Shown here: positions 24,770 through 48,004 of the stretch, piece by piece
Layout of the letters: each line of letters starts with the position of its first letter
Numbering within the stretch: the stretch's first letter is position 1
Assembly: GCA_013151865.1 (NCBI GenBank)
Contig: JAADHN010000166.1
Location: 2,792-66,791 of the forward strand
Reading direction: 5' to 3'
Length of the DNA stretch: 64,000 nucleotides
Source: Kiritimatiellota bacterium
GTDB taxonomy: Bacteria > Verrucomicrobiota > Lentisphaeria > Oligosphaerales > JAADHN01
Translations under genes and position numbers: made by a program
Notes under the pieces: generated by a model
Databases searched by the model: none
What the model saw: the letters and a program-made list of their open reading frames with translations, nothing else
Told to the model about the DNA's origin: nothing

Positions 24770-24793
24770 GCTCTCCCGCAGAGCGGGAGCGGA
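24770..24793. repeat. REP-like GC-rich hairpin repeat, copy 4 (GCTCTCCCGCAGAGCGGGAGCGG)
   Basis: Stem CTCCCGC/GCGGGAG around an AGA loop. Same GCTCTCCCGC start as copies 1 and 2. Confidence 0.45.
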
Positions 24794-25304: not shown

Positions 25305-25333
25305 ATCTGCGTCCATCCGTGTTCTTCCGCGGT
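25305..25333 (+). repeat. 29-nt phased-decamer intergenic motif, copy B (ATCTGCGTCCATCCGTGTTCTTCCGCGGT)
   Basis: 25/29 identical to 7079-7107, same orientation. Confidence 0.6.
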
Positions 25334-25466
25334 GTTTCCTCTTTCTCAACCCCAGGTAGACGCCGGCCAGAGTGAACCCGGCGGGCTTGGCTCAGGAGTC
25401 AGAGTCCGGGTCACCGGCCGCAACGGCCATTCGCATTGTGCTTTTCCGGTCCCGGCTTCCGCTATT

Positions 25467-27056: not shown

Positions 27057-27487
27057 GGTTTCGGTCCTCCTCTTGCCGTCTGCGCTTTTCCTTCCGATGG
27101 GCCACGTTTCGCCGAGGCACACATTGACTCCGTTCACGTCGTTGAAACTCAATGTGCGGCGGTGCAGCACGAGTCTTTGCCGGAGGGTGTCCGCGACCGC
27201 CGCGAAAGCGGTGACAACGCCCGGCAGGCACGTAACATGAGCAATGCATGAGCCATCTGCTGCGATGACGCATCTCCCGTGCTTTCAAAATATTGCCGTT
27301 GCTCACCGGCCGATGCGGCGTTTCAGCACAGCTTTGCCCTGCGCTCGACGCGATGAGCCGAATCCACGCCTGAGTTCTGCCCTCTCGCGACGAAGTCCAT
27401 GAGTGAATTTGGTCGTACCTGCTTGCCGGACCATGATCCGGTCCCGCAGATAGGGGTCCGTCCGAACACGGTGTGCGGTCGAGCGCC

Positions 27488-34195: not shown

Positions 34196-35161
34196 ATGAA
34201 GACGACGAACTTCTATTTCAACGCCGTAGTGGCGGTTGTCGTGGCGTTCGCAAGCGTTTGGGGAACGCTTCTGGCGCGCCGCTCGCTTCGCCTGCGGGAG
34301 CCGTATGTCCCGCTGTCGGACCCGCGCCGCCTCTCGGTTCATCTTTCGAGTTTGGACGCAGCGGAACCGCGTCTGCGTTTCGGCGTGGCGACCATGCTCA
34401 CTCCCGAGGCGACCTTCACGACGTATCACAAGTTGATTGTTGAGGTTTGTCGTCGGGCCGGGGTCCCTTTTCGCTTCGTGGTCCGCCCGTCCTATTTCGC
34501 TCTGCGTCAGGCGCTCGAACGGTCCGATGTCGACGTGGCATTCGTCTGTACCGGCACTTACCTGCGCTCGGACAAGGCACAAGTCCGTCTTCTCGTCCGG
34601 CCTGAGTATGCACGCGGCTGGGAGTACCGTGCCGTGGTGCTTGTTCGGCTGGCATCGGACTACCGACGTGTTGAGGACCTGGCGGGGCGGGTAATGGCCT
34701 TTTCGGACCCCGAATCGTTCACCGGCTGTCTTGTTCCCAGCGTATTAATTGCCTCCAGGGGCGCCGCGCCGCGGACGTACTTCCGCAAAGTCGTTTTCAC
34801 GGGCAGTCACGATAGGTCCGTCCTCGCGGTTTCGCGCGGCGTGGCGGACGCTGCCAGTGTGGACGCGCTGGTCTGGACGTCCCTGTCCCGCCAGGAACCG
34901 AACCTCGTCTCCCGGCTGCGCGTTCTGTGGCGGAGTCCCCGATTCGGCGAACCTCCTGTGTTGGCATCGTCCCGCCTGAAGCGTGAAACGGTCGTTCGAT
35001 TGCAGAAGTCACTCTTATCGTTGAACGAGGATTCGACGGGCCGGGAGATCCTACGGTCCATCGGAGTCGCCCGATTTGTTCCCGCCACACCCGATCGTTA
35101 TGAATCTGCCGAAGAGTTGTACCGCAGGTTCCGGGCTGCAAGCATGTTGTCATGGCCTTGA
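34196..35161 (+). CDS. PhnD-like (phosphonate-binding-type) periplasmic solute-binding protein with N-terminal membrane anchor
   Basis: MKTTNFYFNAVVAVVVAFASVWGTLLA (anchor), then LRFGVATMLTPEATFTTYHKLIVEVCRRAGVPFRFVVRPSYFALRQALERSDVDVAFVCTGTYL and VVFTGSHDRSVLAVSRGVADAASVD, typical of the PhnD/Phosphonate-bd fold. Its stop overlaps the kinase start by 10 nt. Confidence 0.75.
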   Translation: MKTTNFYFNAVVAVVVAFASVWGTLLARRSLRLREPYVPLSDPRRLSVHLSSLDAAEPRLRFGVATMLTPEATFTTYHKLIVEVCRRAGVPFRFVVRPSYFALRQALERSDVDVAFVCTGTYLRSDKAQVRLLVRPEYARGWEYRAVVLVRLASDYRRVEDLAGRVMAFSDPESFTGCLVPSVLIASRGAAPRTYFRKVVFTGSHDRSVLAVSRGVADAASVDALVWTSLSRQEPNLVSRLRVLWRSPRFGEPPVLASSRLKRETVVRLQKSLLSLNEDSTGREILRSIGVARFVPATPDRYESAEELYRRFRAASMLSWP

Positions 35162-36609
35162 GAAACAGTACAATTGAGAACCTTGTCCTGAGCTGGGGCG
35201 CTTTGGCGCTGTTCTGCCTTGCTGCACCTTTTGGGGTCGGTCTCACCGAGATGGTAGTGGCTCCCTTGGAACGCAACGTGGTCGGGAGCGGCGAGATTCG
35301 AGCCCGGGAAGCGGCGGCGGCACTGGTCGAACCGCTTCTGCTCGAGGACAGACTGACTATGCAGGACCGGCTGCTCCGCCTCGCCCGGACATGTCCGGAC
35401 TTTCTGTATGTTTTTGTTGTTTCGGGGGCCCCCAGCCCCGGCCGTCGCATCGCGGCTTACGGCAGGTGTCCGACCACGTCGGGTCAACTCATGCTTTCGG
35501 GGCTCGGCAGGATTGCCCGTTTCCGATCTTCTGCGGGTCTGGTGCTGGACATTCGTGCGGACATCCTGGGGGGTCAGCTCGGACAACTGCACCTGGGTCT
35601 GTCCCGGGCGGCCCTCCAGGCTGCGGAGAATCGGGCTGCGACCACTTTGAGTATAGGTCTTGCCATGGCTTTCCTCTGCCTGGTCACCGGGGTGCAAATC
35701 GTGACGCGAAAAGTCTCTCTGCCACTTCGTCGCCTCGGGGAGATGATGTCCCTGTATCCGGGCGCCCCCGTCCCTCGGCCCGGGACCGAGGTATCCGGTT
35801 CGCCGGAAGTCGATTCTCTCGCGACTCAACTGCAGGGAATGATCGACCGGCTCGAAACGTTGGAAGCCGAGCGCACGGCCACGCAGCAACGGATGTTGCA
35901 TACGGAACGACTTGCCGCATTGGGTGAACTCGCGGCGGGTCTGGTCCACGAACTCCGCAATCCGGTGGACGGGATGCTGGAATGTGTCTCGTTTGTGGCG
36001 GAGGCCCCCGACCGTCCGGAGCGGGTGGCCAAGTATCTGCCGTTGGTCGGCGAAGGATTGGAGCGGGTTTCGAGCACGTTGAACGGCATGCTGGGTTTCA
36101 TTCGGTCCAGTGAAGACCTGAGCATTCGTGCCTGTCAGGTCCGCGAAGTCCTGCGGGAGCTGGAGCCGCTGATTCAGGCGCGCCAGGAACACCGCCGGAT
36201 CGATATTTCCATCCAAACCTGCGCCCAGTGCTCCTGCCTGTGCTCTGTGGATGCTCTGCTGCAAGTCTGCCTCAACCTGGTCCTGAATGCGTTCGATGCG
36301 CTCGACGGGGTCCCCGGCCCGCGAATCCGCATCGACGCGAGGTGCGACAACGCCTGGGTGTACCTGTGCGTCGCGGACAATGGCCCCGGCGTCCCGGAGG
36401 ATTTGCGCAGCAAGGTATTTGCGCCTTTTTTTACCACCAAGGTTCAGGGACGGGGGACGGGGCTTGGCCTGTCGGTGTCGCGCGAACTTGTCCGCGCCGG
36501 CGGCGGCGAATTGCTGCTGGTCTCCGATTCGGGGCCGTTGCCCGGAGCGTGTTTTCAGGTGAAGCTCGTGCGAAGCGACCGCGCGGTCCCTGCCGACGGG
36601 AGGTTGTGA
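35152..36609 (+). CDS. sensor histidine kinase (two TM segments, HAMP-like linker, HisKA, HATPase_c)
   Basis: H-box ERLAALGELAAGLVHELRNP. N/G boxes LNLVLNAFDAL, VADNGPGVPEDLRSKVFAPFFTTK, GTGLGLSVS. Confidence 0.85.
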   Translation: MALRNSTIENLVLSWGALALFCLAAPFGVGLTEMVVAPLERNVVGSGEIRAREAAAALVEPLLLEDRLTMQDRLLRLARTCPDFLYVFVVSGAPSPGRRIAAYGRCPTTSGQLMLSGLGRIARFRSSAGLVLDIRADILGGQLGQLHLGLSRAALQAAENRAATTLSIGLAMAFLCLVTGVQIVTRKVSLPLRRLGEMMSLYPGAPVPRPGTEVSGSPEVDSLATQLQGMIDRLETLEAERTATQQRMLHTERLAALGELAAGLVHELRNPVDGMLECVSFVAEAPDRPERVAKYLPLVGEGLERVSSTLNGMLGFIRSSEDLSIRACQVREVLRELEPLIQARQEHRRIDISIQTCAQCSCLCSVDALLQVCLNLVLNAFDALDGVPGPRIRIDARCDNAWVYLCVADNGPGVPEDLRSKVFAPFFTTKVQGRGTGLGLSVSRELVRAGGGELLLVSDSGPLPGACFQVKLVRSDRAVPADGRL

Positions 36610-38069
36610 TGTCGAAGGCGCGCATATTGATTGTGGACGACGAACGGATCAAACGGACCGTGCTCGTCGACCGATTGAACGAGGCCGGCTACGACACTGT
36701 TGCGGCCGAGAATCCCTGCAAAGCGGCACCGATCCTGGCCAAGACGGTTTTCGACGTGGTCATCACCGACCTGCGCATGCCCGGCCAAGACGGTCTTTCG
36801 TTCTTGCGCGAACTGCGAGAACGCCGTCCTGAGCAGGTGGTGATCGTCGTTACCGCGTACGGATCGGTGGAATCCGCGGTGGAAGCCATGAAGCTGGGGG
36901 CATTCGACTACATCCAAAAACCGTTTGCCGCCGAAGAGCTTGCTCTGAAAATCAGCCGTGCGCTCAGGTTGCGCCGGTTGGAACAGGAAAACGAAGCGCT
37001 GCGGAATCGGCTGGCTTCGACATCTCCCACGCCTTCGATGGTGGGAAAGTCCCAGGCGATCCGGGAAGTCCTTCTGGCGATCCATGCGGTAGCCCCTACC
37101 GAGACAACTGTTTTGGTGGAAGGGGAAAGCGGGGTGGGCAAGGAACTGGTGGCACGCACGATCCATGCCTGTTCTCTCCGTTCGGACGGGCCCTTCGTGG
37201 CGGTGTCCTGCGCCGCGCTGCCGGCGACCATCGTCGAGTCCGAATTGTTCGGTCACGAAGCGGGTTCGTTTACCGGCGCGCGTCGTCGTCGCGCCGGCCG
37301 GTTCGAAATGGCTTCCGGGGGGACTTTGTTCCTGGACGATGTGGACGATACGCCTCTGGAGGTGCAGGTCAAGCTCTTGCGCGTGCTCCAGGAAAAACGG
37401 TTCGAGAGAGTGGGGGGTGAACAATCGGTCAAGGCCAACGTCCGGATCGTAGCCGCAACAAAGCACCCGCTTCAGCGTCTGGTGGCGACCGGCCGCTTCC
37501 GGGAGGACCTGTTCTACCGCCTGAATGTGGTTCCGGTGCGGGTCCCTCCTCTGCGGGAACGGGTCGAAGACATTCCCCTGTTGATGGAATACTTCCTCGA
37601 GCAAATCGGCAACCGGATGGGGAGACGCCCCCCGCGACTCACGTCCGAAGCCGTCGGAGTCTTGGTGAACTACTCCTGGCCCGGCAACGTGCGCCAGCTC
37701 GAACACTACCTCGAACGGCTCGTGGTGTTCAACTCGAAGCCCTTGTGCGACGTGCGGGAACTCCCGGATTTACCGCCGGCCAGTCTTCCGACCGACGTGT
37801 TTTCTTTCCGATCCCCCGGGACCGCCAGCATTGATCTTAACGCGACCCTGCGACAGATGGAGTCGCGGCTTCTGGATTGGGCCTTGAACCGTGCCGGCGG
37901 CAATCTCATGCGGGCAGCCAAAATGCTGGGCGTCCCGCGCAGCACGTTGCAGTATCGACTTTCCCGCCTTTCTTCCAAGAGTGGTGAGATCTCAGACAGC
38001 GAGACATCGCCGAATCTTTGGCAATCCGGCCAAGATCTCGTCAATCCGCCGGATCGGCCCGAGAGCTGA
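36609..38069 (+). CDS. sigma54-dependent response regulator (NtrC family: receiver + AAA+ + HTH)
   Basis: The ATG overlaps the kinase stop (GTGATG). Receiver ILIVDDE..VVITDLRMPGQDG. AAA+ Walker A VEGESGVGKELVA. GAFTGA-type loop GHEAGSFTGA. ESELFGHE-like, RFREDLFYRLNVV. C-terminal HTH AAKMLGVPRSTLQYRL. Confidence 0.9.
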   Translation: MSKARILIVDDERIKRTVLVDRLNEAGYDTVAAENPCKAAPILAKTVFDVVITDLRMPGQDGLSFLRELRERRPEQVVIVVTAYGSVESAVEAMKLGAFDYIQKPFAAEELALKISRALRLRRLEQENEALRNRLASTSPTPSMVGKSQAIREVLLAIHAVAPTETTVLVEGESGVGKELVARTIHACSLRSDGPFVAVSCAALPATIVESELFGHEAGSFTGARRRRAGRFEMASGGTLFLDDVDDTPLEVQVKLLRVLQEKRFERVGGEQSVKANVRIVAATKHPLQRLVATGRFREDLFYRLNVVPVRVPPLRERVEDIPLLMEYFLEQIGNRMGRRPPRLTSEAVGVLVNYSWPGNVRQLEHYLERLVVFNSKPLCDVRELPDLPPASLPTDVFSFRSPGTASIDLNATLRQMESRLLDWALNRAGGNLMRAAKMLGVPRSTLQYRLSRLSSKSGEISDSETSPNLWQSGQDLVNPPDRPES

Positions 38070-38183
38070 CGACCAACCACGTTCACCTCGAAAAACGGCG
38101 GTGCTCCCCCGAATCCCGGCAGACGCCGCCGGAGCAATACTTCATCCTCTGCCCCTGTACGTTGCACCTGCCTTCCACTGCAT

Positions 38184-38199
38184 TGGCACCATACCTGCA
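38184..38199 (+). promoter_or_regulatory. candidate sigma54 (-24/-12) promoter TGGCAC-CATAC-CTGCA
   Basis: TGGCAC at 38184-38189 and CTGC at 38195-38198 give the consensus GG-to-GC spacing of TGGCAC-N5-TTGC, with one mismatch (C for T). It lies 107 nt upstream of the FeS-subunit ATG and directly downstream of the sigma54 activator gene. Confidence 0.55.
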
Positions 38200-38305
38200 A
38201 TTCAACTTCGCCGATTCCTCGACACAAGTGAGGGAGTCTGTTCCCGGCAACTCCACCTTCAGGTATCGGCGTATTGGCATTCTCCAGCACGGAGGCTGTT
38301 GTGTG

Positions 38306-39247
38306 ATGCGAATTGACAAAGAGGACCTTCCCGTACCGGACCCGGAAGTCACAGCCGCAAATCGCGCGCAGAATGCCATCGAACGCGGGGATTTCCTCCG
38401 CAAAGCCGCCATGCTGGCGGCGGGGACGTGCAGCCTCGCGGTGGGCGCCGCTGCGACCGTCTCCCGCCGAGAAGCGCCCGCCCGTGTGCCGGCGCAGCCG
38501 GATGGAGCAGACTTGGACAATCCGCTCGAGCGTATGCGGCGCGAGTTGGAACGAGCCTTGCGGAAGCCGATGGAGGAGCGCAAGTGGGTCATGGTGATCG
38601 ACCGCCAGAAGTGCATTGGCTGCAAGGCCTGCACGGTCTCCTGCGCGGTCGAAAACGACCTTCCCCCGGGAGTTGTCTATCGCCCCGTCACCGAGGACGA
38701 GGTCGGGCAATTCCCTCATGTTCGCCGTGTTTTCCTCCCGCGTCCATGTATGCAATGCGAGAAACCGCCGTGCACGCCGGTGTGCCCGGTAACGGCCACG
38801 TACAGACGACCTGACGGCGTCGTGGTTGTCGATTATGACATCTGCATTGGGTGCAGGTACTGCCTTAATGCATGTCCGTACAACGCCCGAACCGCGGACT
38901 TCGGGGAATTCTTCACCGAACCTGCGGGGCGCGAGGCGGCCGGGCTGGTGGGAGAACCGGCCACGGCGTACGAGCATCGTGCGACGTTTGAATACGGAAA
39001 AAGCCGGCGCCGCGAGCATGGGAAGGAGCGTTCGCCCATGGGCAATGCCAGAAAGTGCCATTTCTGCCTTCACCGGGTGGAGAACGGCATGCTGCCGGCG
39101 TGTGTGGCCACGTGTCTCGGCGGGGCGACCCTGTTCGGAGACTACGGGGACCCTGCCAGCCTCGTGCACGAACTCGTGGGCAGCACGCGTGTGACCCGTC
39201 TCAAAGAGGACTTGGGTACCGAGCCTTCAGTGTTCTACCTGGCGTGA
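38306..39247 (+). CDS. 4Fe-4S dicluster (four-cluster) electron-transfer subunit of a molybdoenzyme, TtrB/PsrB/NrfC-like
   Basis: GGAGG at 38291. Four Cys groups: CIGCKACTVSC, CMQCEKPPCTPVCP, CIGCRYCLNACP, CHFCLHRVENGMLPACVATC. First gene of an FeS-anchor-Mo (B-C-A) operon. Confidence 0.85.
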   Translation: MRIDKEDLPVPDPEVTAANRAQNAIERGDFLRKAAMLAAGTCSLAVGAAATVSRREAPARVPAQPDGADLDNPLERMRRELERALRKPMEERKWVMVIDRQKCIGCKACTVSCAVENDLPPGVVYRPVTEDEVGQFPHVRRVFLPRPCMQCEKPPCTPVCPVTATYRRPDGVVVVDYDICIGCRYCLNACPYNARTADFGEFFTEPAGREAAGLVGEPATAYEHRATFEYGKSRRREHGKERSPMGNARKCHFCLHRVENGMLPACVATCLGGATLFGDYGDPASLVHELVGSTRVTRLKEDLGTEPSVFYLA

Positions 39248-39261
39248 GGAGTCGCGGCGTT

Positions 39262-40470
39262 ATGAAACCATTGGGTCGCAAGATCGCTTGGGGTGTTTGG
39301 CTGGCATTGGCTGCCTTTGGCACGTGGGGCGTCTATCTGCGCATGACTACGGGGCATCGGCTTGCCAATTACGGCAGTTATTTCCCTTGGGGATTATGGG
39401 TGGCGGTGTACGTCTATTTCAGCGGCATGTCTGCCGGCATCTTTCTGCTGTCGATGTTCGTTGCCGTATTCCGCATCCGCCCCCTCGCGAGGCTGGTCCG
39501 CCCGGGACTGTTTATCTCCGCAATCGCTCTTCTGGTGGCCCTGTTGTCCATCTCCTTCGATCTCGGGCACATGTTCCGCGCCCCCGAAGTGTTTTTGCGA
39601 CCCAATTTTCACTCCGTAATGACCTTGATGGCTTGGCTGTACGCCGCCTATTTTCCAATCATTCTGGTCGCGCTTTGGTTGGATCTGCGCGGCGATCCGT
39701 CGCTTCATGCCCAACGGGACGACGCGTCGGGCGGCCAGGCCCGCGAGCCGGCCCGACAACGGGGCGAACGCTGTTTGCGTTGCATCGGCTGGCTCGGCAT
39801 TCCCCTCGCCGTGGTGTTCTCGAGTGGGCTTGGCGGTCTTTTCGCCACGCTTCCAGCAAAGCCGTATTGGTACCAGTCTCTGTATCCTGTCCTTTTTCTG
39901 GTCGGCGCACTTTTGTCCGGAAGCGCTCTGATGTTGGCAGTGGTGTCGGCGGGGCAGCGTTTTCAGGACGAGGAAGGCGTGCGCTTGCGGCGGATTCTGG
40001 TTCGAATCGTTCTCGGGCTGTTGGCGTTCGACATCATTATCGAATCGGCCGAGATACTCGTCCCGATGTGGTATGCCGTCGGACCCGAGTACCATCTATA
40101 CAGGACCATCCTGTTCGGGCGGTTCGCCGTTCTGTTCTGGGTGGTTCACGTACTTTTTGGCATTGCAGTACCCCTCGTCCTTCTGATCGCCAAGCCCTGT
40201 TGCCGCTGGGCCGCCGCCGCAGCGGGCATATTGATCGCCGCCACTTTTCTGGCCGTGCGGCTGATTCTGATTCTGCCGGGCGAGATCACGCCCGAAATCA
40301 AAGGACTGCGCGAGGCCTACGCCGACCCGCGACTCTCTTTTTCGTACGTTCCGTCCACGTTTGAATGGGCTGTGGTCGCTTTTCTTATTGCTCTGGGTTG
40401 GGCCGTCTTCGTTTTGGGCAACCGCACCCGGCTCTTTCGGGACGCCGGAACGGTCCCGGACAAGGCTTGA
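39262..40470 (+). CDS. NrfD/PsrC-family integral membrane anchor subunit, TtrC-like
   Basis: Start MKPLGRKIAWGVWLALAAFGTWGVYLRMTTGHRLANYGSYFPWGLWVAVYVYFSGMSAG, the characteristic NrfD-family opening. Multiple hydrophobic helices follow throughout. Confidence 0.85.
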   Translation: MKPLGRKIAWGVWLALAAFGTWGVYLRMTTGHRLANYGSYFPWGLWVAVYVYFSGMSAGIFLLSMFVAVFRIRPLARLVRPGLFISAIALLVALLSISFDLGHMFRAPEVFLRPNFHSVMTLMAWLYAAYFPIILVALWLDLRGDPSLHAQRDDASGGQAREPARQRGERCLRCIGWLGIPLAVVFSSGLGGLFATLPAKPYWYQSLYPVLFLVGALLSGSALMLAVVSAGQRFQDEEGVRLRRILVRIVLGLLAFDIIIESAEILVPMWYAVGPEYHLYRTILFGRFAVLFWVVHVLFGIAVPLVLLIAKPCCRWAAAAAGILIAATFLAVRLILILPGEITPEIKGLREAYADPRLSFSYVPSTFEWAVVAFLIALGWAVFVLGNRTRLFRDAGTVPDKA

Positions 40471-40504
40471 GTCTGGAAGTCCCGAGAAGGAGAACCAACG
40501 GATT

Positions 40505-43500
40505 ATGAATCAGCCACGGCAAGAGAAACAGGCCGATGGCCTGAGCCGTCGTGAGTTCCTGGGCTCTTCGGCCTTTGTCGGCGGCATGGCGGCATTTGCT
40601 TCGCAACTGGTCGGTTGTCGCGCCTTCCGCGAAATGAACAGCGGGGCGATCGGCTCATATGCCCTGGCTGATCCGAAAAACACCCTGTACACCACCTGCC
40701 TCCAGTGTCATTTGGCCTGCCCGATCAAAGTCAGAGTCTGGGAAGGGACGCCCGCCAAATTGACCGGCAGCCCTTACAGCCCACAGAACTATCTGCCGCA
40801 CCTCCCCTACGAGACTTCCCCGGACCAGGCCGCGCCGGCGGACGGCAAACTGGACGTCAAAGGGCAAAGCGGGGTCCAGACCTACGGTGATCCGTACCGA
40901 CTCCGCCGTGTACTGAAGCGCCAGGGCCCTCGGGGATCGAACAAGTGGCGGGTCGTGGAATTCAACCAGTTCATCGAGGAAGTCGTCACCGGCGGCAAGC
41001 TGTTTGCCGAAATCGGAGACGAACGCCATTACCCCGGATTCGACGAGGTCTACGCCTTGCGCGACCGAGATTTGGCCCGGCGGATGGCCGCCGACGCCAA
41101 GAAGGTTGGGGCGGGAACGATGACGCTCGCCGCGTTCAAACAGCAGTACAGTGCGGACCTGGACAAGCTCATCGACCCGGACCACCCGGACCTCGGCCCC
41201 AAGAACAATGGGTTCGTTTTCCAAGCAGGCCGCATCGAGCACGGCCGCAAGGAATTGATGAAATGGTTCACCCATGACAGCTTCGGTTCGAACAACGCCT
41301 ACGAGCATACCACCATCTGCGAACAGTCACACCACATTGCCTTCAAGCAGATGACCGGCAAGACGCACATGAAGCCGGACCTCCTCAATTGCGAATTCGT
41401 CTTGTTCTGGGGGACCGGCGCCTTCAGCGCAAACTTCGGATTGACATGCATGGCGGAGAAAGTCACGACCGGAACAATCAGCGGACGTTTGAAAACGGCG
41501 GTTGTCGACCCGCGTCTTTCCAACGATGCCGGCAAGGCCGACTGGTGGCTGCCCGTCAAGCCCGGGGCGGATGGGGCCCTGGCACAATGGATGATCCGCT
41601 GGATACTTGAGAACAAACGATATGACGCGCGGTATCTCGCCAACGCGAACAAGGCCGCCGCCCAAGCCGACCATGAACCGACTTGGACCAATGCCACACA
41701 TTTGGTCAAAATCGTGGACGGGCATCCGTTGCAACGCATGACGGCTGCCGAAGCGGGGGTCGGTTCGGACAACGAGTTCGTCGTATCGCACCGCGGAAAG
41801 TTGCTCGCGGTGGCGGACGACCCCAAACGCCCCGTGGAAGGGGACCTCCTGGTCGACGCAACCGTCAACGGGACGAAAGTGAAGAGCGCATTCCAACTGT
41901 TGTGGGATGAAGCTTTCGGGCGTACCCCGGACCAGTATGCCCGGATAACCGGACTGCCGCCTCGCCTGGTCGAAGAGGTCGCCCGAGAGTTGACCAGTCA
42001 CGGCAAACGCGCCGCCGTGGACATGTATCGGGGCGCGGTGCAGCATACCGACGGCTTTCACACCGGCTGCGCAATCGTCACACTGAACATGCTGATCGGC
42101 AACTTTGATTGGAAAGGCGGGCTGCAGGTCGGCGGCGGCCACTGGCATGAATCGGGGGGCAAAGCGGCGAGCATTTACAACTTCAAGAAAATGCATCCCG
42201 CCAAGATGCCGAAGTTCGGCCCGCCGATTTCACGGGAAAAAAGCCGCTACGAAGACTCCAGCCTGTTTCGTGACGCCGGATATCCCGCCAAACGGCCCTG
42301 GTATCCCTTTACGGGCAATCTGTACCAGGAAATCATCCCGTCCTTCGCCCAAGGATACCCGTACAAAGGCCGGATTCTCTTCCTGCACAAAGGGACCCCG
42401 GCACTGGCCTCCCCCGCCGGAGACAAAGTGATCGGCATGTTGGAAGACCCCGCAAAAGTGCCGCTGTTCATCTCATCGGACATCGTCATCGGTGAAACCA
42501 CCATGTACGCCGATTACATCGTCCCGGACGTGACTTACTTCGAACGGTGGGCGACCCCTCACGCCACTCCCGACGTGCCCACCAAAACCAGTAAAGTGCG
42601 CCAACCTGTTGCCAAGCCCTTGACCGAAGAGGTGGAAGTCGACGGCGAACGCATGCCCCTCTGTTTGGAAACGTTTCTCATCGCGGTGGCCAAGAAACTG
42701 AACATGCCCGGATTCGGCCGGGGAGCATTTGTCGGTCACGGCGATTTCCATCGCAGCGAGGATTGGTTCCTCAAACTGGTCGCCAACATCGCCGTGGGGG
42801 ACAAGGCCGGCGAACGCGTTCCGGATGCCGACGACGCGGAATTGGCGCTCTTCCGCCAAGCACGGCGGCACTTGCCCCCAAGCGTATTCGACGAAACCAA
42901 ATGGAAGCGCGCCGTTTTGCCTGAATTGTGGCGCAAGGTGGTCTATGTGCTCAACCGGGGCGGACGTTTCGCGAGTTTCGGGACAACCTACGACGGCGAA
43001 TACATGAAGAGCAGGTTCGGGAAGGCGGTCCACCTGTTCATGGACGACGTCGCCGGCCAACGCAACAGTCTGTCCGGGAAATTCTTCATTGGGTATCCGG
43101 CATATCGGGGCCAATACGATTCATCGGGCAAGCCCCTGGACGGCGAGGGCGCTTATTCGTTGGCGCTGATCACGTTCAAGGAGCCGATCGGCGGGCAATC
43201 GAGGACCATCTCCAACTACTGGGGCAACATCGCACTCAAGAACGAAAACGCTTTTGTGCTCAACCCGGTCGACGCACGTCGCCTCGGATTGGCGGACGGA
43301 CAACTCGCCCGGCTGCGGTCCACGGCGAACCCACAGGGCGTCGTGGATTTGGGGAACGGCGGACAAAAGGAGCTGGTCGCCAAAGTCGCCGTGAGCGAAG
43401 GCATCCGGCCCGGCGCCGTCGCGGTCAGCTGGCACTACGGACATTGGGCATACGGCTCCGCCGACGTTATCGTGAACGGCCGGCGGATTGTCGGCGATCG

Positions 43501-43642
43501 GCGGCGTGCCGCCGGCATTTGCCCGAACCACGCAATGGCCGTTGATCCAATCCTGAAGGATGTCTGCCTGACCGATCCCATCGGCGGCAGCGCCAGCTTC
43601 AACGACACATTCGTGACGTTGACTCCGGCGGTTTCATCGTAA
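40505..43642 (+). CDS. Tat-exported molybdopterin (bis-MGD) oxidoreductase catalytic subunit, tetrathionate reductase TtrA-like (~1045 aa)
   Basis: Tat signal LSRREFLGSSAFVGGMAAFA. N-terminal FeS motif CLQCHLACPIKVRV (CxxCxxxC). Strings that I recall as TtrA-like: IRWILENKRYDARYL, WTNATHLV, RPWYPF, GYPYKG, YADYIVPDVTYFERW, FLIAVAKKLNMPGFG. Its size and B-C-A gene order match the ttr operon rather than psr/phs. Confidence 0.85.
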   Translation: MNQPRQEKQADGLSRREFLGSSAFVGGMAAFASQLVGCRAFREMNSGAIGSYALADPKNTLYTTCLQCHLACPIKVRVWEGTPAKLTGSPYSPQNYLPHLPYETSPDQAAPADGKLDVKGQSGVQTYGDPYRLRRVLKRQGPRGSNKWRVVEFNQFIEEVVTGGKLFAEIGDERHYPGFDEVYALRDRDLARRMAADAKKVGAGTMTLAAFKQQYSADLDKLIDPDHPDLGPKNNGFVFQAGRIEHGRKELMKWFTHDSFGSNNAYEHTTICEQSHHIAFKQMTGKTHMKPDLLNCEFVLFWGTGAFSANFGLTCMAEKVTTGTISGRLKTAVVDPRLSNDAGKADWWLPVKPGADGALAQWMIRWILENKRYDARYLANANKAAAQADHEPTWTNATHLVKIVDGHPLQRMTAAEAGVGSDNEFVVSHRGKLLAVADDPKRPVEGDLLVDATVNGTKVKSAFQLLWDEAFGRTPDQYARITGLPPRLVEEVARELTSHGKRAAVDMYRGAVQHTDGFHTGCAIVTLNMLIGNFDWKGGLQVGGGHWHESGGKAASIYNFKKMHPAKMPKFGPPISREKSRYEDSSLFRDAGYPAKRPWYPFTGNLYQEIIPSFAQGYPYKGRILFLHKGTPALASPAGDKVIGMLEDPAKVPLFISSDIVIGETTMYADYIVPDVTYFERWATPHATPDVPTKTSKVRQPVAKPLTEEVEVDGERMPLCLETFLIAVAKKLNMPGFGRGAFVGHGDFHRSEDWFLKLVANIAVGDKAGERVPDADDAELALFRQARRHLPPSVFDETKWKRAVLPELWRKVVYVLNRGGRFASFGTTYDGEYMKSRFGKAVHLFMDDVAGQRNSLSGKFFIGYPAYRGQYDSSGKPLDGEGAYSLALITFKEPIGGQSRTISNYWGNIALKNENAFVLNPVDARRLGLADGQLARLRSTANPQGVVDLGNGGQKELVAKVAVSEGIRPGAVAVSWHYGHWAYGSADVIVNGRRIVGDRRRAAGICPNHAMAVDPILKDVCLTDPIGGSASFNDTFVTLTPAVSS

Positions 43643-43795: not shown

Positions 43796-44251
43796 ATGGC
43801 TTACATCCTGATAGTGGAAGACGACCAAGATTATGCCGATGCAGTATCAACCGTTTTGAGTGCGGAGAACCATGAGATCAGGATCCTCCGGGAGACCCAT
43901 ACCGTGATCGGCTCGATGCAGGAACGCCGGCCCGATCTGGTCATCCTCGATATCATGTTCCCCGAAGACGTCTCGGCCGGTTTTCGCCTGGCCCGGGCCA
44001 TCCACAACTTTCACTCGGAACTCGAAGATGTCCCGATTCTGCTTTTGACAGCGGTGAATGCCCGCTTTCCCTTGGGGTTCGGCCCGGGCGACATCGACGA
44101 GGTTTGGATGCCCGCGACCGACTTTCTCGAAAAACCCGTCGATTTCGACCTTCTCCGCGACAAAGTGAACGCCCTCCTGAGAGACCGAGCCGGGGCGCGG
44201 CACGCCGACCGGGACCTGACCGTGGAGAGCAGGCGGACAGGGAACCCGTAG
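43796..44251 (+). CDS. stand-alone response-regulator receiver domain protein
   Basis: MAYILIVEDDQDYADAV...RPDLVILDIMFP..(phospho-acceptor Asp context)..PILLLTA..FLEKP. No output domain. Confidence 0.8.
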   Translation: MAYILIVEDDQDYADAVSTVLSAENHEIRILRETHTVIGSMQERRPDLVILDIMFPEDVSAGFRLARAIHNFHSELEDVPILLLTAVNARFPLGFGPGDIDEVWMPATDFLEKPVDFDLLRDKVNALLRDRAGARHADRDLTVESRRTGNP

Positions 44252-44288: not shown

Positions 44289-45503
44289 ATGGCAATGCAG
44301 CCGCAGCAAGCATGGAAGATCCTGATTGACAGTATCGAACCGCTCACGGCTATCGGCACGCCCCTGGACGAAGCGGTCGGCTGCTATCTAGCGGAAGACC
44401 TCCACGCCGACCGAGACGAGCCCCCGACCGACCGGTCGGCCATGGACGGCTATGCCGTACGCTCGGCGGAGATCGCGTCCCCTCCTGTCGCCCTTCGGAT
44501 AGAGGGAGAGGTCCCCGCGGGTGCAGCTCCCGGAGTGCGCCTCACCCCCGGCGGTTGCATCCGGGTCTTCACTGGGTCGGTCGTCCCCGAGGAAGCCGAC
44601 GCCGTCGTACGGGTCGAGGATTGCGCCGAGGACGACACCGGAATCTCCGTGAAAGCGTCGGTCCATCCCGGAGAAAACATCCGGTACCGCGGGGAAGTTT
44701 GGGCGGCATCATCCAAACTCCTGTCTCGCGGAACGTGCCTTACCCCGATGCGGTTGGCGATCTGCGCGAGCATCGGGCGTTTGCACTTGCCGGTGATCCG
44801 GAAGCCCCGAATCGCACTTCTTGTCACGGGCAACGAGTTACGCCCTCTCGGAGCGCCCGTCGCGCCACATCAGATCCGGGATGCGAATGGTCCCGCCATC
44901 GGGGCCGTGCTGACCCAGGCGGGCTTTGGTCGCATCCGCCCGCGACAAGTCCGGGATCAACCGGAACAGATTCGCGGCGAACTCTGCGAAGCGCTCGAAC
45001 ATCACGACGTGGTCCTTCTTTCCGGCGGAGTGTCGGTGGGCCGGCATGACTTGGTTCCCGGCGCCGTTCGGGCATGCGGCGGGGATATCCGATATCACGG
45101 TCTGGCCATGAAGCCCGGAAAGCCTCAACTCTACGCTCGGTTTCCGGGCAATCGGCATGTCTTCGGCCTGCCCGGGAACCCGCTTAGCGCTCTCACCGGG
45201 CTGACGGAGTTCGTCTTGCCCGCACTTCGCTTGCTGGGCGGCTGTCCGGCAGACCGCTGCCGCTGGCGCTTCCTCTTGCCGCTCGTCGAGACCTGTTCCA
45301 ACCCGCGGAACAGGATCGCGTTTACCCTCGTGCGCCTTCTGAATACGGAATCCGGCCTCTCCTTGAAGCCGGTATCGTCCCACGGGTCCGCCGACATGAA
45401 GGCCGCCGCTGTGGCCGACGGTGTGGCTGCATTGCCCCCTGGACGCAAGCACATTCCCCGCGGGACGGCAGTGGAATTCACCGCATGGAGACCCTTGTGG
45501 TGA
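44289..45503 (+). CDS. moeA: molybdopterin molybdenumtransferase
   Basis: ..PLDEAVGCYLAEDLHAD.., PPTDRSAMDGYAV, ..VLLSGGVSVGRHDLV.., HGLAMKPGKP are MoeA hallmarks. Confidence 0.85.
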   Translation: MAMQPQQAWKILIDSIEPLTAIGTPLDEAVGCYLAEDLHADRDEPPTDRSAMDGYAVRSAEIASPPVALRIEGEVPAGAAPGVRLTPGGCIRVFTGSVVPEEADAVVRVEDCAEDDTGISVKASVHPGENIRYRGEVWAASSKLLSRGTCLTPMRLAICASIGRLHLPVIRKPRIALLVTGNELRPLGAPVAPHQIRDANGPAIGAVLTQAGFGRIRPRQVRDQPEQIRGELCEALEHHDVVLLSGGVSVGRHDLVPGAVRACGGDIRYHGLAMKPGKPQLYARFPGNRHVFGLPGNPLSALTGLTEFVLPALRLLGGCPADRCRWRFLLPLVETCSNPRNRIAFTLVRLLNTESGLSLKPVSSHGSADMKAAAVADGVAALPPGRKHIPRGTAVEFTAWRPLW

Positions 45504-46459
45504 AAAACACGGTAAGCCTCAGAATCTCGCTGACGACGGAATGCCAGTTCCGCTGTCTCTACTGCACTGCCGGCAAAGACCATGTCGGAGACGCCCCGGC
45601 GCAGAGATTGACGGTTGAGGAAATCGTTTCTTTCGTGCGACAGGTCAAGGGTCGGTTCCGGATCGAGAAGATCCACTTGACCGGGGGCGAGCCGCTCCTG
45701 CGGTCCGACATCGTGGAATTGGTTCGGCGCCTCTCCCGTCTGGGGATCGGGGACATTGCCCTTACCACGAATGGGGAACGCCTGGTGGATCGGGCCGAGG
45801 CACTCAGAGACGCCGGGTTGCGGCGCCTCAACATCAGCCTCGACAGCCTTGAAACACGGATGCTGGCCCGTATCACGCGCGGCGGACATCTCGAGCGGAT
45901 TGTGGCTGGCATCGAACGGGCCGGCGCGCTCGGCCTGCGGCCCATCAAAATCAACACGGTCGTCCTCCGCGGGGTGAATGACGGCGAACTGGCGCGCTTG
46001 GCAGAATGGTCTTTGGGGCACGGGTGGGTCCCCCGCTTCCTCGAACTCATGCCCATCGGTCCTGCCAAGCCTCTCCATGGTCGCCTCTTTGTTCCGGTGC
46101 AGGAAATCATGGAACGACTGGCGAGGACCTTCACGCTCAACGGCCCGTTGCCCGAGGCCGGTCTCGGCAGCACACGTTATTATGCAGCCGCTTCGCCCAG
46201 GGCGGTCGGGAGGATCGGCTTCATCACTCCGGTCACACATCCGTTCTGCGCCGGCTGCAACCGACTCAGATTGACGGAAGCCGGCGACCTTGTCTCCTGT
46301 CTCGCCTGCGGTCTGGGGGTCAATGTGCGACAGTGGCTGGCGCCGGAGGGAAAAGGCAGACCGGACCGATTCGCAAACCTTCTTGACCGAGTACTGAAGA
46401 CCAAGAAAGGGCGTGGTCTTTTCCAGACGGAAACACCGATGATGGCGGTCGGAGGCTGA
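45485..46459 (+). CDS. moaA: GTP 3',8-cyclase (molybdenum cofactor biosynthesis protein A)
   Basis: LRISLTTECQFRCLYCTAG (CxxxCxxC), IHLTGGEPLLR, LTTNG, C-terminal FCAGCNRLRLT cluster motif. Overlaps the moeA end by 19 nt. Confidence 0.9.
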   Translation: METLVVKNTVSLRISLTTECQFRCLYCTAGKDHVGDAPAQRLTVEEIVSFVRQVKGRFRIEKIHLTGGEPLLRSDIVELVRRLSRLGIGDIALTTNGERLVDRAEALRDAGLRRLNISLDSLETRMLARITRGGHLERIVAGIERAGALGLRPIKINTVVLRGVNDGELARLAEWSLGHGWVPRFLELMPIGPAKPLHGRLFVPVQEIMERLARTFTLNGPLPEAGLGSTRYYAAASPRAVGRIGFITPVTHPFCAGCNRLRLTEAGDLVSCLACGLGVNVRQWLAPEGKGRPDRFANLLDRVLKTKKGRGLFQTETPMMAVGG

Positions 46460-46515
46460 AAGAACAGACGGCGGCAAAAAGACCCCGAAACACGCCCGGG
46501 CGGAGAAGAAACGTT

Positions 46516-47028
46516 ATGCCTTCCGATGATTCCCAATGCCGACCCTCCGGTACCGGGGCCTCCCTGTCGCACGTGCATGAAGGGCACGCTGTCATGGTCG
46601 ACGTCAGCGAAAAACCCGTCAGCCTGCGCGCCGCCGAGGCGGAAGCCCGCGTGCGCCTCGGTGCCGCGACTGCCGCACGACTCCGGGAAACGGGCGAAGC
46701 CGGCAAAGGCAATGTGCTTGAAACGGCTCGGATGGCGGGCATCGCCGGCGCCAAGAAATGTTCCGAGCTGATTCCGATGTGCCACCCGTTGCCATTGGAT
46801 GTGGTCGAGATCGCCGCGGAACTTGTGGAGCAAACCGTTCTCTTGCGCTCTCGCGTGGTTTGTCACGCTCGAACCGGTGTGGAAATGGAGGCGCTCACCG
46901 CCGTAACTGTCGCAGCTCTGACCGTGTACGATATGGTCAAGGCTGCGGATAAACAGATTGAAATCGGCCCTATTCGGCTGGTCAGCAAAATGGGAGGTAA
47001 GTCCGGTGAGTGGCGCCGCGAGCAATGA
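46516..47028 (+). CDS. moaC: cyclic pyranopterin monophosphate synthase
   Basis: LSHVHEGHAVMVDVSEKPVSLR.., KGNVLETARMAGIAGAKKCSELIPMCHPLPL, TGVEMEALTAVTVAALTVYDMVKA. Confidence 0.9.
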   Translation: MPSDDSQCRPSGTGASLSHVHEGHAVMVDVSEKPVSLRAAEAEARVRLGAATAARLRETGEAGKGNVLETARMAGIAGAKKCSELIPMCHPLPLDVVEIAAELVEQTVLLRSRVVCHARTGVEMEALTAVTVAALTVYDMVKAADKQIEIGPIRLVSKMGGKSGEWRREQ

Positions 47029-48004
47029 ACCCGCCGGTCGTATTGTCGCCGTTTGCATCAGTGAACGGAAAGGGACCCCGAAAACGCCGGTCGCGTCTGC
47101 CCGTTTCGTGGCCGGGGCAGGTCTCGAGGCCGACGCTCACGCCGGTCCGTGGCATCGGCAAGTCAGCATCCTCGACAAGGAAGCCGTGGATCGGGTCCGC
47201 AAGGCCGGTCTTCCCGACTTGACTCCGGGGGCCTTTGCCGAAAACCTCCAGACGGAAGGGCTGAACCTGGAACACTGCGGGCTCGGGACTCGACTCGTCA
47301 TTGCCGACCAGGTGCAATTGGTGGTGACTCAGATCGGAAAAACCTGCCATACCCCTTGCCGGATCGCCCGGATCACCGGCGACTGCATCATGCCCGGCCG
47401 CGGGCTGTTCTGCCGAGTGGAGCGGGGCGGGAAAGTCGCCGCAGGAGATCCGGTCCGTATCGAAGAATGCGTGGGCCGCGATTTGTTCCAGGCCGTCGTG
47501 CTCACGATCAGCGACAGCCGTGCCGCCGGGGTTGCTCGAGACACCGCCGGCCCTGCGGTCGCAGACCTCTTGGAGAGTCGACTCAATGTGCACATTTATC
47601 GCCGGAAGATCATTCCGGACGATCATAACCGGATTCGGGACGCCCTCCTTCACTACGCCGGGGGGCATTCCATCGACTTGGTCGTGACGGTCGGAGGCAC
47701 CGGTTTTTCACCCCGGGATGTGACCCCGGAAGCCACGGCGACCGTCGTCCAACGCCCGACGCCCGGGCTTGACGAAGTCATGCGGGCCGCGTCCGTTGCC
47801 AAGACTCCGTTCGCCGCCCTGTCCCGGGGGCGATCCGGGATTCGCGGCAGAACGCTGATCCTGAATCTCCCGGGGTCGCGAAAGGCCGCCGTCGAAAACT
47901 TGCAGGCAATCGTCTCCTGCCTCGAACATGGGCTTGGAAAGATCCGCGGAGACCCGACGCCGTGCGCCGGCGTACAGGCGAGCAAGAAGGATGAGCAGCC
48001 ATGA
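47006..48004 (+). CDS. MOSC domain / MoaB-MogA-type molybdopterin-binding domain fusion protein
   Basis: GTG 47006 is preceded by GGGAGG; the track ORF starts at a TTG at 46958. N-terminal half is MOSC-like (RIVAVCISERKGTPK..QVSILDKEAV..ENLQTEGL..GDPVRI). C-terminal half is MoaB/Mog-like (VVLTISDSRAAG..DLVVTVGGTGFSPRDVTPEAT..LPGSRKA). Confidence 0.75.
   Translation: MSGAASNEPAGRIVAVCISERKGTPKTPVASARFVAGAGLEADAHAGPWHRQVSILDKEAVDRVRKAGLPDLTPGAFAENLQTEGLNLEHCGLGTRLVIADQVQLVVTQIGKTCHTPCRIARITGDCIMPGRGLFCRVERGGKVAAGDPVRIEECVGRDLFQAVVLTISDSRAAGVARDTAGPAVADLLESRLNVHIYRRKIIPDDHNRIRDALLHYAGGHSIDLVVTVGGTGFSPRDVTPEATATVVQRPTPGLDEVMRAASVAKTPFAALSRGRSGIRGRTLILNLPGSRKAAVENLQAIVSCLEHGLGKIRGDPTPCAGVQASKKDEQP

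Follow-up and report, generated by a model that had tools for sequence, protein, structure and literature searches.

What does a respiratory molybdoenzyme reduce when its closest named relative is tetrathionate reductase and its genes lie beside a sensor of their own? The question is raised by six genes, all on the + strand, at positions 34196-43642 of the window (the whole stretch of 64,000 nt analysed here). The host is a Kiritimatiellaeota MAG, in agreement with the 'PVC-like' genome of the original prediction, which favoured tetrathionate and had allowed for another substrate. The sensor and the sequence signatures of the locus point to arsenate over tetrathionate.

Gene content of the locus

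The genes encode, in order, a binding protein (X), a kinase (S), a sigma54 regulator (R), an FeS subunit (B), an NrfD protein (C) and the Mo subunit (A; Table 1). Open reading frames, translations and domain matches (Pfam and NCBIfam profiles throughout) place the operon genes where they had been predicted, and the description of a Tat-exported, NrfD-anchored respiratory molybdoenzyme of B-C-A order with its own sensor was correct. The six blocks quoted for the large subunit (CLQCHLACPIKVRV, RWILENKRYDARYL, WTNATHLV, RPWYPF, YADYIVPDVTYFERW and AVAKKLNMPGFG) are all found in its translation. The R gene starts with an ATG that overlaps the kinase stop codon. The B translation has 16 Cys in four cluster motifs; its best NCBIfam match is TtrB (189 bits, cutoff 416), followed by DsrO (177 bits).

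Table 1. Features of the locus and its downstream flank, in window positions
Feature	Position	Strand	Basis
X, ArrX/AioX-type periplasmic oxyanion-binding sensor	34196..35161	+	PF12974, 197.7 bits; N-terminal signal anchor
S, sensor histidine kinase	35152..36609	+	Pfam HisKA + HATPase_c
R, sigma54-dependent response regulator	36609..38069	+	Pfam Response_reg, Sigma54_activat, AAA_lid_14, HTH_8
Candidate sigma54 -24/-12 promoter, TGGCACcatacCTGC	38184..38198	+	Consensus match
B, four-[4Fe-4S] electron-transfer subunit	38306..39247	+	Fer4_11 + related Pfam families
C, NrfD/PsrC-type integral membrane quinol-interacting anchor	39262..40470	+	PF03916 NrfD, 128 bits
A, catalytic Mo/W-bisPGD subunit, 1045 aa	40505..43642	+	NCBIfam TtrA, 467 bits (cutoff 1750)
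GAC codon (Asp117) in A gene, fourth FS0 cysteine position	40853..40855	+	
Stand-alone receiver-domain protein, directly 3' of A	43796..44251	+	PF00072 only
Moco genes as block	44289..49068	+	Pfam + NCBIfam matches
MoeA	44289-45503	+	
MoaA	45485-46459	+	
MoaC	46516-47028	+	
MOSC-MoaB/Mog	within ORF 46958-48004	+	True start uncertain
MobB-MobA	48001-49068	+	
Porin_5 outer-membrane porin	49265-50605	+	PF16930, 86 bits

The dedicated cofactor genes and the porin said to accompany the module are real by Pfam and NCBIfam, and both lie downstream of the A gene. Homologous operons in other phyla are likewise trailed by Moco genes. The porin is a possible entry route for the oxyanion, a tie to the operon that its position suggests. 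It has no homology to the beta-barrel gene (cluster c9) that related loci have between R and B. Lone receivers (cluster c16) occupy that interval in five related loci; in the window such a protein is encoded directly 3' of the A gene. No ars genes were found within the 64-kb window with the queries used, and a search of the window for rhodanese found none.

The candidate promoter lies 108 nt 5' of the ATG of the FeS subunit gene, agrees with the consensus at nine of ten positions and has no second site of this kind beside it in the intergenic region (236 nt). About 7% of random 2.3-kb stretches contain a score of at least 9, so roughly 0.7% would be expected per 236 nt. Across related loci the site showed no clear enrichment.

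The catalytic subunit

The A subunit carries a Tat motif (SRREFL), an FS0 motif C65-x2-C68-x3-C72...D117, a G242-R243 pair and, by alignment to ArrA (6cz7), the Mo-ligand Cys272 within EHTTICEQSHH. The original prediction took TtrA as the best match, which holds among named NCBIfam families (467 bits, as against 162 for PhsA and 100 for ArrA) and fails for true family membership. The score is a quarter of the equivalog cutoff, while even Azospirillum Ttr-like proteins reach 1218 bits; identity to annotated ttrA is 31%; the subunit falls in a separate NJ clade; and GR with EHTTICEQSHH stands in place of the HGAYCG..YR of true TtrA. Phylogeny and active-site signature, both proposed beforehand as checks, thus put it outside the bona fide Ttr clade. 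The subunit belongs to the broad TtrA/SrdA/alternative-ArrA lineage and is not a true TtrA, and to that extent only was the tetrathionate reading right.

Could it nevertheless be a bona fide tetrathionate reductase served by a split TtrS-type sensor? TtrA and TtrB are its best named HMM matches, and several close relatives are auto-annotated by JGI as 'tetrathionate reductase subunit A'. Like the TtrBCA-TtrSR systems of Salmonella, Citrobacter and Shewanella, the locus combines B-C-A order, Tat export, an NrfD anchor and Cys-ligated Mo-bisPGD with a large subunit of similar length (about 1020 aa in TtrA) and an adjacent sensor with a PF12974-type periplasmic domain. The B-C-A order is present as predicted, but it is not special to Salmonella ttr and holds in every relative examined. 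Against this reading stand the score, identity, clade and signature just given, and the lack of tetrathionate reduction by Ttr-like arsenate reductases (PMC12949373). With the sensor evidence below, it becomes highly improbable.

ArrA is the closest solved structure both by sequence (6cz7, 96 bits) and by fold (AF2 model, pLDDT 83.8; Foldseek E 3.6e-40). As in ArrAB(C) of Shewanella ANA-3, the Mo ligand is Cys (C272 = C193), a His stands at position -4 from it, and the Arg that binds arsenate is present (R243 = R165). ArrA differs in being about 200 aa shorter, in its HMM (100 bits for the window protein, cutoff 1600) and in its A-B gene order with other partners. Two of its six arsenate contacts are identical in the A subunit (R165, H189); Y166, K198 and Y210 are replaced by Ile, His and His, respectively.

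The GR pair is present in 344/344 clade members and absent from true TtrA, and has been described as the feature that separates arsenic enzymes from bona fide Ttr (PMC12949373). It also occurs in 157 of 183 sampled sequences of the lineage, and being so widespread it is no proof of arsenate specificity. The partial conservation of the ArrA contacts leaves room for a reductase of some other oxyanion or sulfur species, such as selenate (SrdA-like), antimonate, sulfite, thiosulfate/polysulfide or thioarsenate, with X sensing that compound or a phosphate-like analogue. One member of the TtrA/SrdA/alternative-ArrA family is a selenate reductase, and the family has been called versatile in its catalysis (PMC7331816, PMC10100899). 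Ttr homologues of Dissulfuribacter were more abundant under sulfite-reducing conditions (PMC13490349).

The window's only deviation among 92 columns of at least 97% conservation is Asp117. Of the 343 clade sequences with a residue in the fourth FS0 column, 340 have Cys; Asp is limited to the window protein, P0001 (an identical copy) and P0061, where it arose independently and whose identity to the window protein is 63%. The substitution could alter the cluster; that of arsenite oxidase AioA is a [3Fe-4S] cluster with three Cys. These points would fit a third reading, in which the enzyme is an Arx-like anaerobic arsenite oxidase that feeds arsenite electrons to the quinone pool, X senses arsenite and the regulator acts as AioR/ArxR. 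The characterised members of the Ttr lineage are all reductases, and no oxidant-reducing partner is visible within the window. Cultured Kiritimatiellota, moreover, are as far as is known fermentative anaerobes.

The sensor system

The adjacent sensor noted earlier is present, but it has three components, not two, and is not TtrSR-like; it is of the AioXSR/ArrXSR type, with a separate binding protein. The best solved matches of X are AioX (8ed5, 121.5 bits) and ArrX (6x6b, 119.8 bits), at E of about 1e-34; PhnD, PtxB and HtxB give at most 69 bits, and true TtrS gives 22.7 bits. The AioX pocket Y88/C106/Y131/S161/S163/H192/D210 reads Y/C/Y/S/T/H/D in X, that is, six of seven residues are kept and one is changed conservatively. 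The loop is of ArrX type, gapless against ArrX, with Phe at position 162 as in ArrX. The protein is otherwise divergent (26% identity to ArrX, 29% to AioX).

In true TtrS a PhnD domain (PF12974) is fused to the kinase, and the partner is the LuxR-type TtrR. The periplasmic domain of TtrS makes a split sensor conceivable, yet it contains none of the arsenic pocket residues, and the sigma54 regulator of the window is not of the TtrR type. The S kinase has two TM helices around a periplasmic domain of ~130 aa, followed by HisKA and HATPase; AtoS is its best NCBIfam match (143 bits), and TtrS reaches just 68 bits. Its orthologues adjoin X and R in related loci (105-138 bits). R consists of receiver, AAA+ and Fis-HTH domains (AtoC 440 bits, NtrC 435 bits), the class of AioR and ArxR.

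The family has been characterised in three members: ArrX binds arsenate, and AioX and ArxX bind arsenite (PMC5908839). None binds tetrathionate, thiosulfate, selenate, sulfate or antimonite; ArrX binds phosphate weakly (PMC5908839). This restriction to arsenic oxyanions argues against another substrate, although ligand specificity in the AioX family is not set by the pocket residues alone (PMC5908839). As in the AioXSR, ArxXSR and ArrXSR systems (Rhizobium NT-26, Alkalilimnicola ehrlichii and Chrysiogenes arsenatis, respectively), the X gene adjoins the genes of the kinase, the regulator and the controlled molybdoenzyme (PMC5908839). A candidate RpoN promoter precedes the enzyme genes here. 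The enzyme itself is of the Ttr lineage, neither Aio, Arx nor Arr, and an ArrX-like loop is combined with an AioR/ArxR-like regulator.

Two features of X agree with arsenite oxidation: it retains the Cys through which AioX bonds arsenite, and overall it is marginally nearer AioX than ArrX. But ArrX retains the same Cys and binds arsenate (PMC5908839), and the loop length and Phe162 are those of ArrX. The regulator class would also favour oxidation, as Chrysiogenes ArrR is LuxR/FixJ-like and AioR and ArxR are of the AtoC/sigma54 class (PMC5908839). Since relatives pair X with either class, however, regulator type is no guide to direction. We regard arsenite oxidation as quite unlikely.

Related loci

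Among 49 informative loci (related genome loci with 6.5 kb or more of sequence upstream), 28, from many phyla, have an X gene. It is absent from several close relatives. The neighbouring X is always accompanied by a sigma54 or LuxR-type regulator, and the usual order is X-S-R-B-C-A. Of the 31 X proteins encoded nearby, 29 have the pocket Y-C-Y-S-x-S/T-H-D, and none of these is closer to AioX (25-37% identity) than to ArrX (31-42%).

ACR3, ArsP or ArsA is encoded at 12 of 80 related loci (ACR3 match 443 bits, cutoff 283). The cultured Deferrisoma camini, whose A subunit is 56% identical to that of the window, has, all on a single strand, acr3-arsD-arsA-methyltransferases-X-S-R(sigma54)-B-A. Of the related operons, 15-17 have a gene for a periplasmic rhodanese next to them and 16-17 an FmdE gene, hints of sulfur or selenium chemistry in some close relatives. 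The window is without rhodanese, and the enriched, specific neighbours are ACR3, ArsA, ArsD and ArsP, not selenium or sulfur genes. On balance another substrate seems rather unlikely.

The enterobacterial plasmid operons (Citrobacter arsenatis LY-1; Salmonella, Enterobacter and E. coli plasmids) also have B-C-A order and GR, with the signature EHTNICELSHH, and sit among arsRDABC, arsH and arsC. They differ from the window in their enzyme (35% identical to the A subunit, in a separate NJ clade) and in having ArsR-type regulators and no X-S-R nearby.

A probable arsenate-respiring operon

The Ttr-like arsenate reductases (Melioribacter roseus, PSR-1, Pyrobaculum aerophilum PAE1265 and Limisphaera) and SrdA were compared with the window through their descriptions in the literature. 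As in the window, the reductases have a Mo subunit of about 1000-1070 aa, FeS and NrfD partners and the GR motif; Asp for the fourth FS0 Cys sets the window protein apart. In M. roseus, 'ArrTSR' lies directly 5' of a ttr-like locus (MROS_1076) whose ttrA is transcribed only with arsenate (PMC5492636). There too a phosphonate-binding-like periplasmic protein, a kinase and a regulator are encoded directly upstream (PMC5492636), but arsRPCB is next to arrT, whereas no ars operon adjoins the genes in the window. [quoted passage not shown]

We think it probable that the locus encodes a menaquinol-dependent periplasmic 'Ttr-like'/alternative-Arr arsenate reductase, induced via a three-component arsenic-oxyanion sensor. 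Arsenate would enter the periplasm, possibly via the nearby porin, and be bound by the membrane-tethered, ArrX-like X protein. Loaded X would activate the kinase through its periplasmic domain, and the kinase would phosphorylate the sigma54 enhancer-binding regulator, which would open the candidate promoter for transcription of B-C-A. The NrfD subunit would take up quinol electrons and pass them through the four [4Fe-4S] clusters of B and FS0 of A to the Cys272-ligated Mo-bisPGD. There arsenate, held partly by Arg243, would be reduced to arsenite. The downstream Moco genes would supply the cofactor.

In the literature searched we found no report of such a system in Kiritimatiellota. The original view that respiration of tetrathionate or related sulfur oxyanions is essentially uncharacterised in such organisms is weakened by an arsenate-respiring Limisphaera (Verrucomicrobiota), whose Ttr-like complex, proposed as the arsenate reductase, is a precedent from within the PVC superphylum (PMC13608581). 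On this reading the operon is one more member of the already described Ttr-like arsenate reductases.

Gene content of the locus

We regard the six-gene locus at 34196–43642, in DNA from a Kiritimatiellaeota metagenome-assembled genome, as probably encoding a Ttr-like periplasmic arsenate reductase that depends on quinol and is induced by arsenate. The genes lie where the original prediction had placed them, all in one direction with short gaps or overlaps, and each assignment is backed by both Pfam and NCBIfam (see the table); the peptide blocks cited in that prediction were all found in the translation. A binding protein (X), histidine kinase (S), and regulator (R) precede the FeS (B), NrfD (C), and molybdenum (A) subunits. 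Downstream of A follow, in order, a lone receiver protein, the cofactor proteins MoeA, MoaA, MoaC, MOSC-MoaB/Mog, and MobB-MobA, and a Porin_5 protein.

Features of the respiratory locus and its surroundings (window positions)
Feature	Position	Description	Basis
X	34196–35161	PF12974 periplasmic binding protein, signal anchor	Pfam and NCBIfam
S	35152–36609	histidine kinase, two TM	Pfam and NCBIfam
R	36609–38069	sigma54-dependent response regulator	Pfam and NCBIfam
B	38306–39247	four-[4Fe-4S] subunit	Pfam and NCBIfam
B N-terminus	38306–38470	hydrophobic segment after ERGDFLRK	
C	39262–40470	NrfD membrane subunit	Pfam and NCBIfam
A	40505–43642	molybdopterin subunit, 1045 aa, Tat motif SRREFL	Pfam and NCBIfam
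Asp117 codon of A	40853–40855	GAC	
Lone receiver	43796–44251	stand-alone receiver-domain protein, immediately 3′ of A	
Porin	49265–50605	Porin_5 protein	
Surrounding genes	5772–6737; 20018–27170; 51721–53988	IS200-like (Y1 transposase) ORF and polysaccharide-degradation genes	

Several features of the region deserve mention in their own right. The lone receiver might be a phosphate sink or a connector; unrelated lone receivers (ORF cluster c16) are found between the regulator and FeS genes in five Desulfobacterales-type loci (L019, L023, L025, L027, and L074). The hydrophobic N-terminal segment of B has Arg-Gly at the expected twin-arginine position, and homologues of B carry either an RRxFL-type signal or no N-terminal extension at all. 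In 11–13 related loci, a gene for an outer-membrane beta-barrel of about 340 aa and no Pfam match (cluster c9) separates the regulator from the FeS gene; these loci (L031, L041, L043, L046, L050, L076, and L077 among them) belong mostly to the Bacteroidota-Ignavibacteriota-Calditrichota group. In Dissulfuribacter, this position is occupied by an OprO/P-like porin (PMC13490349). The Porin_5 protein of the window is not homologous to the c9 barrel. The polysaccharide-degradation genes around the respiratory island encode GH32, GHL10, and a DUF4962/heparinase II-III-like protein with a GDSL esterase domain, and the island is slightly poorer in G+C (0.60–0.62) than its flanks (0.63–0.67).

Affinities of the molybdenum subunit

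Of the named NCBIfam families, TtrA is the best match to A (467 bits, against 162 for PhsA, 100 for ArrA, and 86 for DmsA/YnfE), in keeping with the earlier judgment that A is closer to TtrA than to PhsA or ArrA. The score is far below the TtrA equivalog cutoff of 1750 bits (NF011567); with the same model, a Ttr-like protein of Azospirillum reaches 1218. The ArrA score is also below its equivalog cutoff (NF041714; 1600 bits), and the (R/K)GRY motif reads AGRI, with Ile in place of Tyr166. In a tblastn search against plasmids, annotated ttrA genes showed only 31% identity to A (374 bits). Stronger hits, with 35% identity, came from plasmids of Citrobacter, Salmonella, Enterobacter, and E. coli, where the genes are unnamed "molybdopterin-dependent oxidoreductases."

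The relationships were examined in a neighbor-joining tree of 174 sequences, comprising the window, its close homologues, representatives of 50%-identity clusters, 80 genome loci, and plasmid references. In this distance tree, which carries no bootstrap values, the window falls in a large clade whose hallmarks are GRIEHGRK and EHTTICEQSHHI, apart from the haloarchaeal clade, that of Citrobacter arsenatis LY-1, and that of true TtrA, which has HGAYCG..YR and no Gly-Arg pair (GR). The annotated ttrA of locus L002 clusters with Pseudomonas and Azospirillum proteins, well away from the window clade. The window reads AGRIEHGRK and EHTTICEQSHH where true TtrA reads NT-SDEGRD and AHGAYCGLAYR. The position of A outside the Ttr clade of this unbootstrapped tree, its different active-site signature, and its score below the cutoff all speak against the tetrathionate reductase originally proposed, and we consider a true enzyme of this kind very improbable. 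The ttrB-ttrC-ttrA order that had favored the proposal is indeed present in the window, but the five further lineage members that were inspected (true ttr, haloarchaea, Azospirillum, Pseudomonas, and LY-1) all share it, as do most of the 80 related loci. The order therefore marks the lineage as a whole and does not discriminate Ttr within it.

The lineage has been described as "TtrA/SrdA/archaeal or alternative arsenate reductase," and its catalytic versatility has been stressed (PMC7331816, PMC10100899). The window clade is very widespread: at least 576 GTDB species have a relative bearing the peptide HT[TA]ICEQS, and 274 cluster representatives were matched at E ≤ 1e-30 in the 50%-identity library.

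Two observations on operon form were made along the way. A distinct GR-bearing B-C-A operon is found within ars islands on IncF-type plasmids of Citrobacter, Salmonella, Enterobacter, and E. coli; on the LY-1 plasmid NZ_CP037863.1 (L001, 10013–15408) it lies amid arsRDABC, arsH, and arsC. Its genes bear no annotation beyond "DsrO," "hypothetical," and "molybdopterin-dependent oxidoreductase," and enterobacteria could thus possess a Ttr-like arsenate reductase that is mobile. Elsewhere, ORF clustering placed the FeS and molybdenum genes together with no NrfD gene between them (order B-A in L040, L042, L044, L046, L062, L073, L075, and L090; in L090 the order is backed by database gene calls and Pfam annotation). 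Some clade members may thus use another membrane partner or be soluble.

The sensor protein and regulation

Within the locus, the sensor tells the most about function. Against solved proteins, X scores 121.5 bits with AioX and 119.8 with ArrX, and no more than 68.7 with the transport-type proteins PhnD, PtxB, and HtxB. The pocket of AioX, formed by Y88, C106, Y131, S161, S163, H192, and D210, is kept in ArxX and ArrX, and its Cys is missing in PhnD (PMC5908839). The ligand is arsenite for AioX and ArxX but arsenate for ArrX, and no binding of tetrathionate, thiosulfate, selenate, or sulfate was seen with any of the three (Badilla et al., PMC5908839). At the pocket positions X has Y, C, Y, S, T, H, and D, position 106 being Gly in PhnD. 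X has Phe at position 162, as does ArrX, and its alignment to ArrX is gapless across the signaling-loop region, whereas the loop of AioX is of another length. We hold an Arx-like arsenite oxidase to be quite improbable.

Since true TtrS is a kinase fused to a PhnD domain that also matches PF12974, we asked if X and S could be a split TtrS. This possibility was rejected: TtrS has none of the AioX pocket residues, and its score with X is 22.7 bits. In the window X is a separate protein, the TtrS HMM (68 bits) matches the kinase core only, and R is of the sigma54 type, whereas TtrR is LuxR-type. R belongs to the AtoC/NtrC class, like AioR and ArxR.

The genes of X, S, and R overlap or adjoin one another upstream of B-C-A. 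A candidate sigma54 −24/−12 site, matching the consensus at 9 of 10 positions, lies 108 nt 5′ of B, and the intergenic region contains no second match of this kind. A promoter scan of the related loci gave no clear enrichment of sigma54 sites over background, so the site is best described as a well-placed consensus match. No upstream inverted repeat that might serve as an activator-binding site was found.

Active site and the N-terminal FeS cluster

Alignment of A to the ArrA of Shewanella ANA-3 (6cz7; phmmer) points to Cys272 as the predicted molybdenum ligand, the counterpart of ArrA Cys193, as had been called for with the original prediction. His268 corresponds to His189, and Gly242-Arg243 to Gly164-Arg165. 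According to a 2026 study of Shewanella Ttr, this Gly-Arg pair is shared by Arr, Arx, and the Ttr-like arsenate reductases, whereas bona fide Ttr lacks it (PMC12949373). Our alignment reproduces the pattern: the pair is present in LY-1 and in every one of the 344 clade members, and is missing from annotated TtrA and from the Azospirillum and Pseudomonas relatives. We had considered the pair as proof of arsenate specificity, but 157 of the 183 sequences sampled across the lineage carry it, and other arsenate contacts of ArrA are changed in A (Y166 to Ile, K198 to His, and Y210 to His). It therefore fits arsenate without deciding for it. In an AF2 model of A (pLDDT 83.8), the predicted fold is nearest to ArrA among solved structures (E 3.6e-40, target-normalised TM-score 0.66); for TtrA, no structure exists with which to compare it.

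The N-terminal [4Fe-4S] cluster, FS0, shows a peculiarity in the window. Its motif, C-x2-C-x3-C...C, retains three of the four Cys residues, the fourth being Asp117. The context is GKLDVKGQ where the family has GKLCxKGQ, and of 343 clade sequences with a residue in this column, 340 have Cys. Gene decay was rejected as the cause, because Asp117 is the sole deviation of the window at 92 highly conserved columns and the same Asp-Val recurs independently in a metagenomic relative, P0061 (L091:2260–5442), which is 63% identical. With this change, FS0 could be either a [3Fe-4S] cluster or one with an Asp ligand.

Sensors and neighbors in related loci

ORFs of the 80 genome loci were clustered, and the 49 loci with at least 6.5 kb upstream were counted for sensor-enzyme pairing. 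A homologue of X is present in 28 of these 49, usually in the order X-S-R-B-C-A. Each locus with X also encodes a regulator, of the sigma54 type in 15 cases, of the LuxR type in 8, and of both types in 6. The hosts are diverse and include Desulfobacterales, Chloroflexota, Nitrospirota, Deferribacteres, Bacillota, Gemmatimonadota, Bacteroidota, and Calditrichota. The pocket Y-C-Y-S-x-S/T-H-D is present in 29 of 31 neighboring X proteins. These 29 are 31–42% identical to ArrX and 25–37% to AioX, none being closer to AioX than to ArrX. The two exceptions, in L041 and L076, belong to a second class of binding protein, with a PhnD-like pocket (Gly at AioX position 106 and Lys at 210), that lies beside some operons (L041:1678–2628, L076:263–1504, and L090:4190–5071), that of Deferrisoma camini included. 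One enzyme clade thus appears to be served by two sensor types, ArrX-like and PhnD-like, and most clade members adjoin one or the other. Three close relatives of the window lack X.

Genes for ACR3 (443 bits; cutoff, 283), ArsP, or ArsA occur in 12 of the 80 loci, the rough expectation for a random 20-kb stretch being 1–2%. In the cultured D. camini, the order on one strand is acr3-arsD-arsA-methyltransferases-X-S-R(sigma54)-B-A. With the queries used, a search of the 64-kb window found no ars genes.

Other neighbors recur as well. Genes for periplasmic rhodanese (15–17 loci) and for FmdE/zinc-finger proteins (16–17 loci) directly adjoin homologous B-C-A operons, whether or not X is there (e.g., L083, with the order X-S-R-rhodanese-B-C-A; L009:13268–13873; L027; L059); the window has neither. 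Such partners may reflect a chemistry of sulfur, selenium, or thio-arsenic, or else the handling of a cofactor. Together with the inclusion of SrdA in the same lineage, they would fit another oxyanion or a sulfur species as the substrate, which we think unlikely. They might also suggest for the clade a substrate not yet assigned to any DMSO-reductase family member (for example thioarsenate, antimonate, or an oxyanion of phosphorus or sulfur); alternatively, the rare Cys-to-Asp FS0 variants, the window among them, might work oxidatively, as a new type of quinone-reducing arsenite oxidase. We give this pair of possibilities little credence.

Published precedents

The arsenate reductase reading has precedents. 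In Melioribacter roseus, "ArrTSR" (a phosphonate-binding-like protein, a kinase, and a regulator) is encoded directly upstream of a ttr-like locus, beside arsRPCB, and ttrA transcripts were found only with arsenate (Gavrilov et al., PMC5492636). By the published description, X-S-R immediately 5′ of B-C-A in the window is the same architecture. Published accounts class the Ttr homologues of Anaeromyxobacter PSR-1 and Pyrobaculum as arsenate reductases that leave tetrathionate unreduced (PMC12949373, PMC11462812, PMC13490349). The Pyrobaculum enzyme has been expressed in P. furiosus. For an arsenate-respiring Limisphaera (Verrucomicrobiota), a Ttr-like complex was proposed in 2026 as the arsenate reductase (PMC13608581). 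Both the architecture and the idea are thus already published, a PVC bacterium included; our literature search found no report of such a system for Kiritimatiellota.

Implications

The window extends the system to Kiritimatiellota. These are polysaccharide-degrading anaerobes in which, to our knowledge, arsenate respiration is not known. No new kind of biology is opened by the finding; what is gained is a discriminating rule, the ArrX-type pocket in a neighboring binding protein combined with GR and HTxICE in the catalytic subunit, and a list of cultured carriers for direct testing. Among these, Desulfuromusa kysingii DSM 7343, Deferrisoma camini, Desulfosporosinus fructosivorans, and Neomoorella carbonis have the order X-S-R-B-C-A or X-S-R-B-A. 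In paddy soils, such ttrA-like transcripts have been reported to exceed those of arrA (PMC11462812). If the assignment is true, automatic labels of "tetrathionate reductase subunit A" on members of the clade mislead metabolic reconstructions. The genes would then signal arsenic respiration and arsenic mobilization rather than sulfur cycling.
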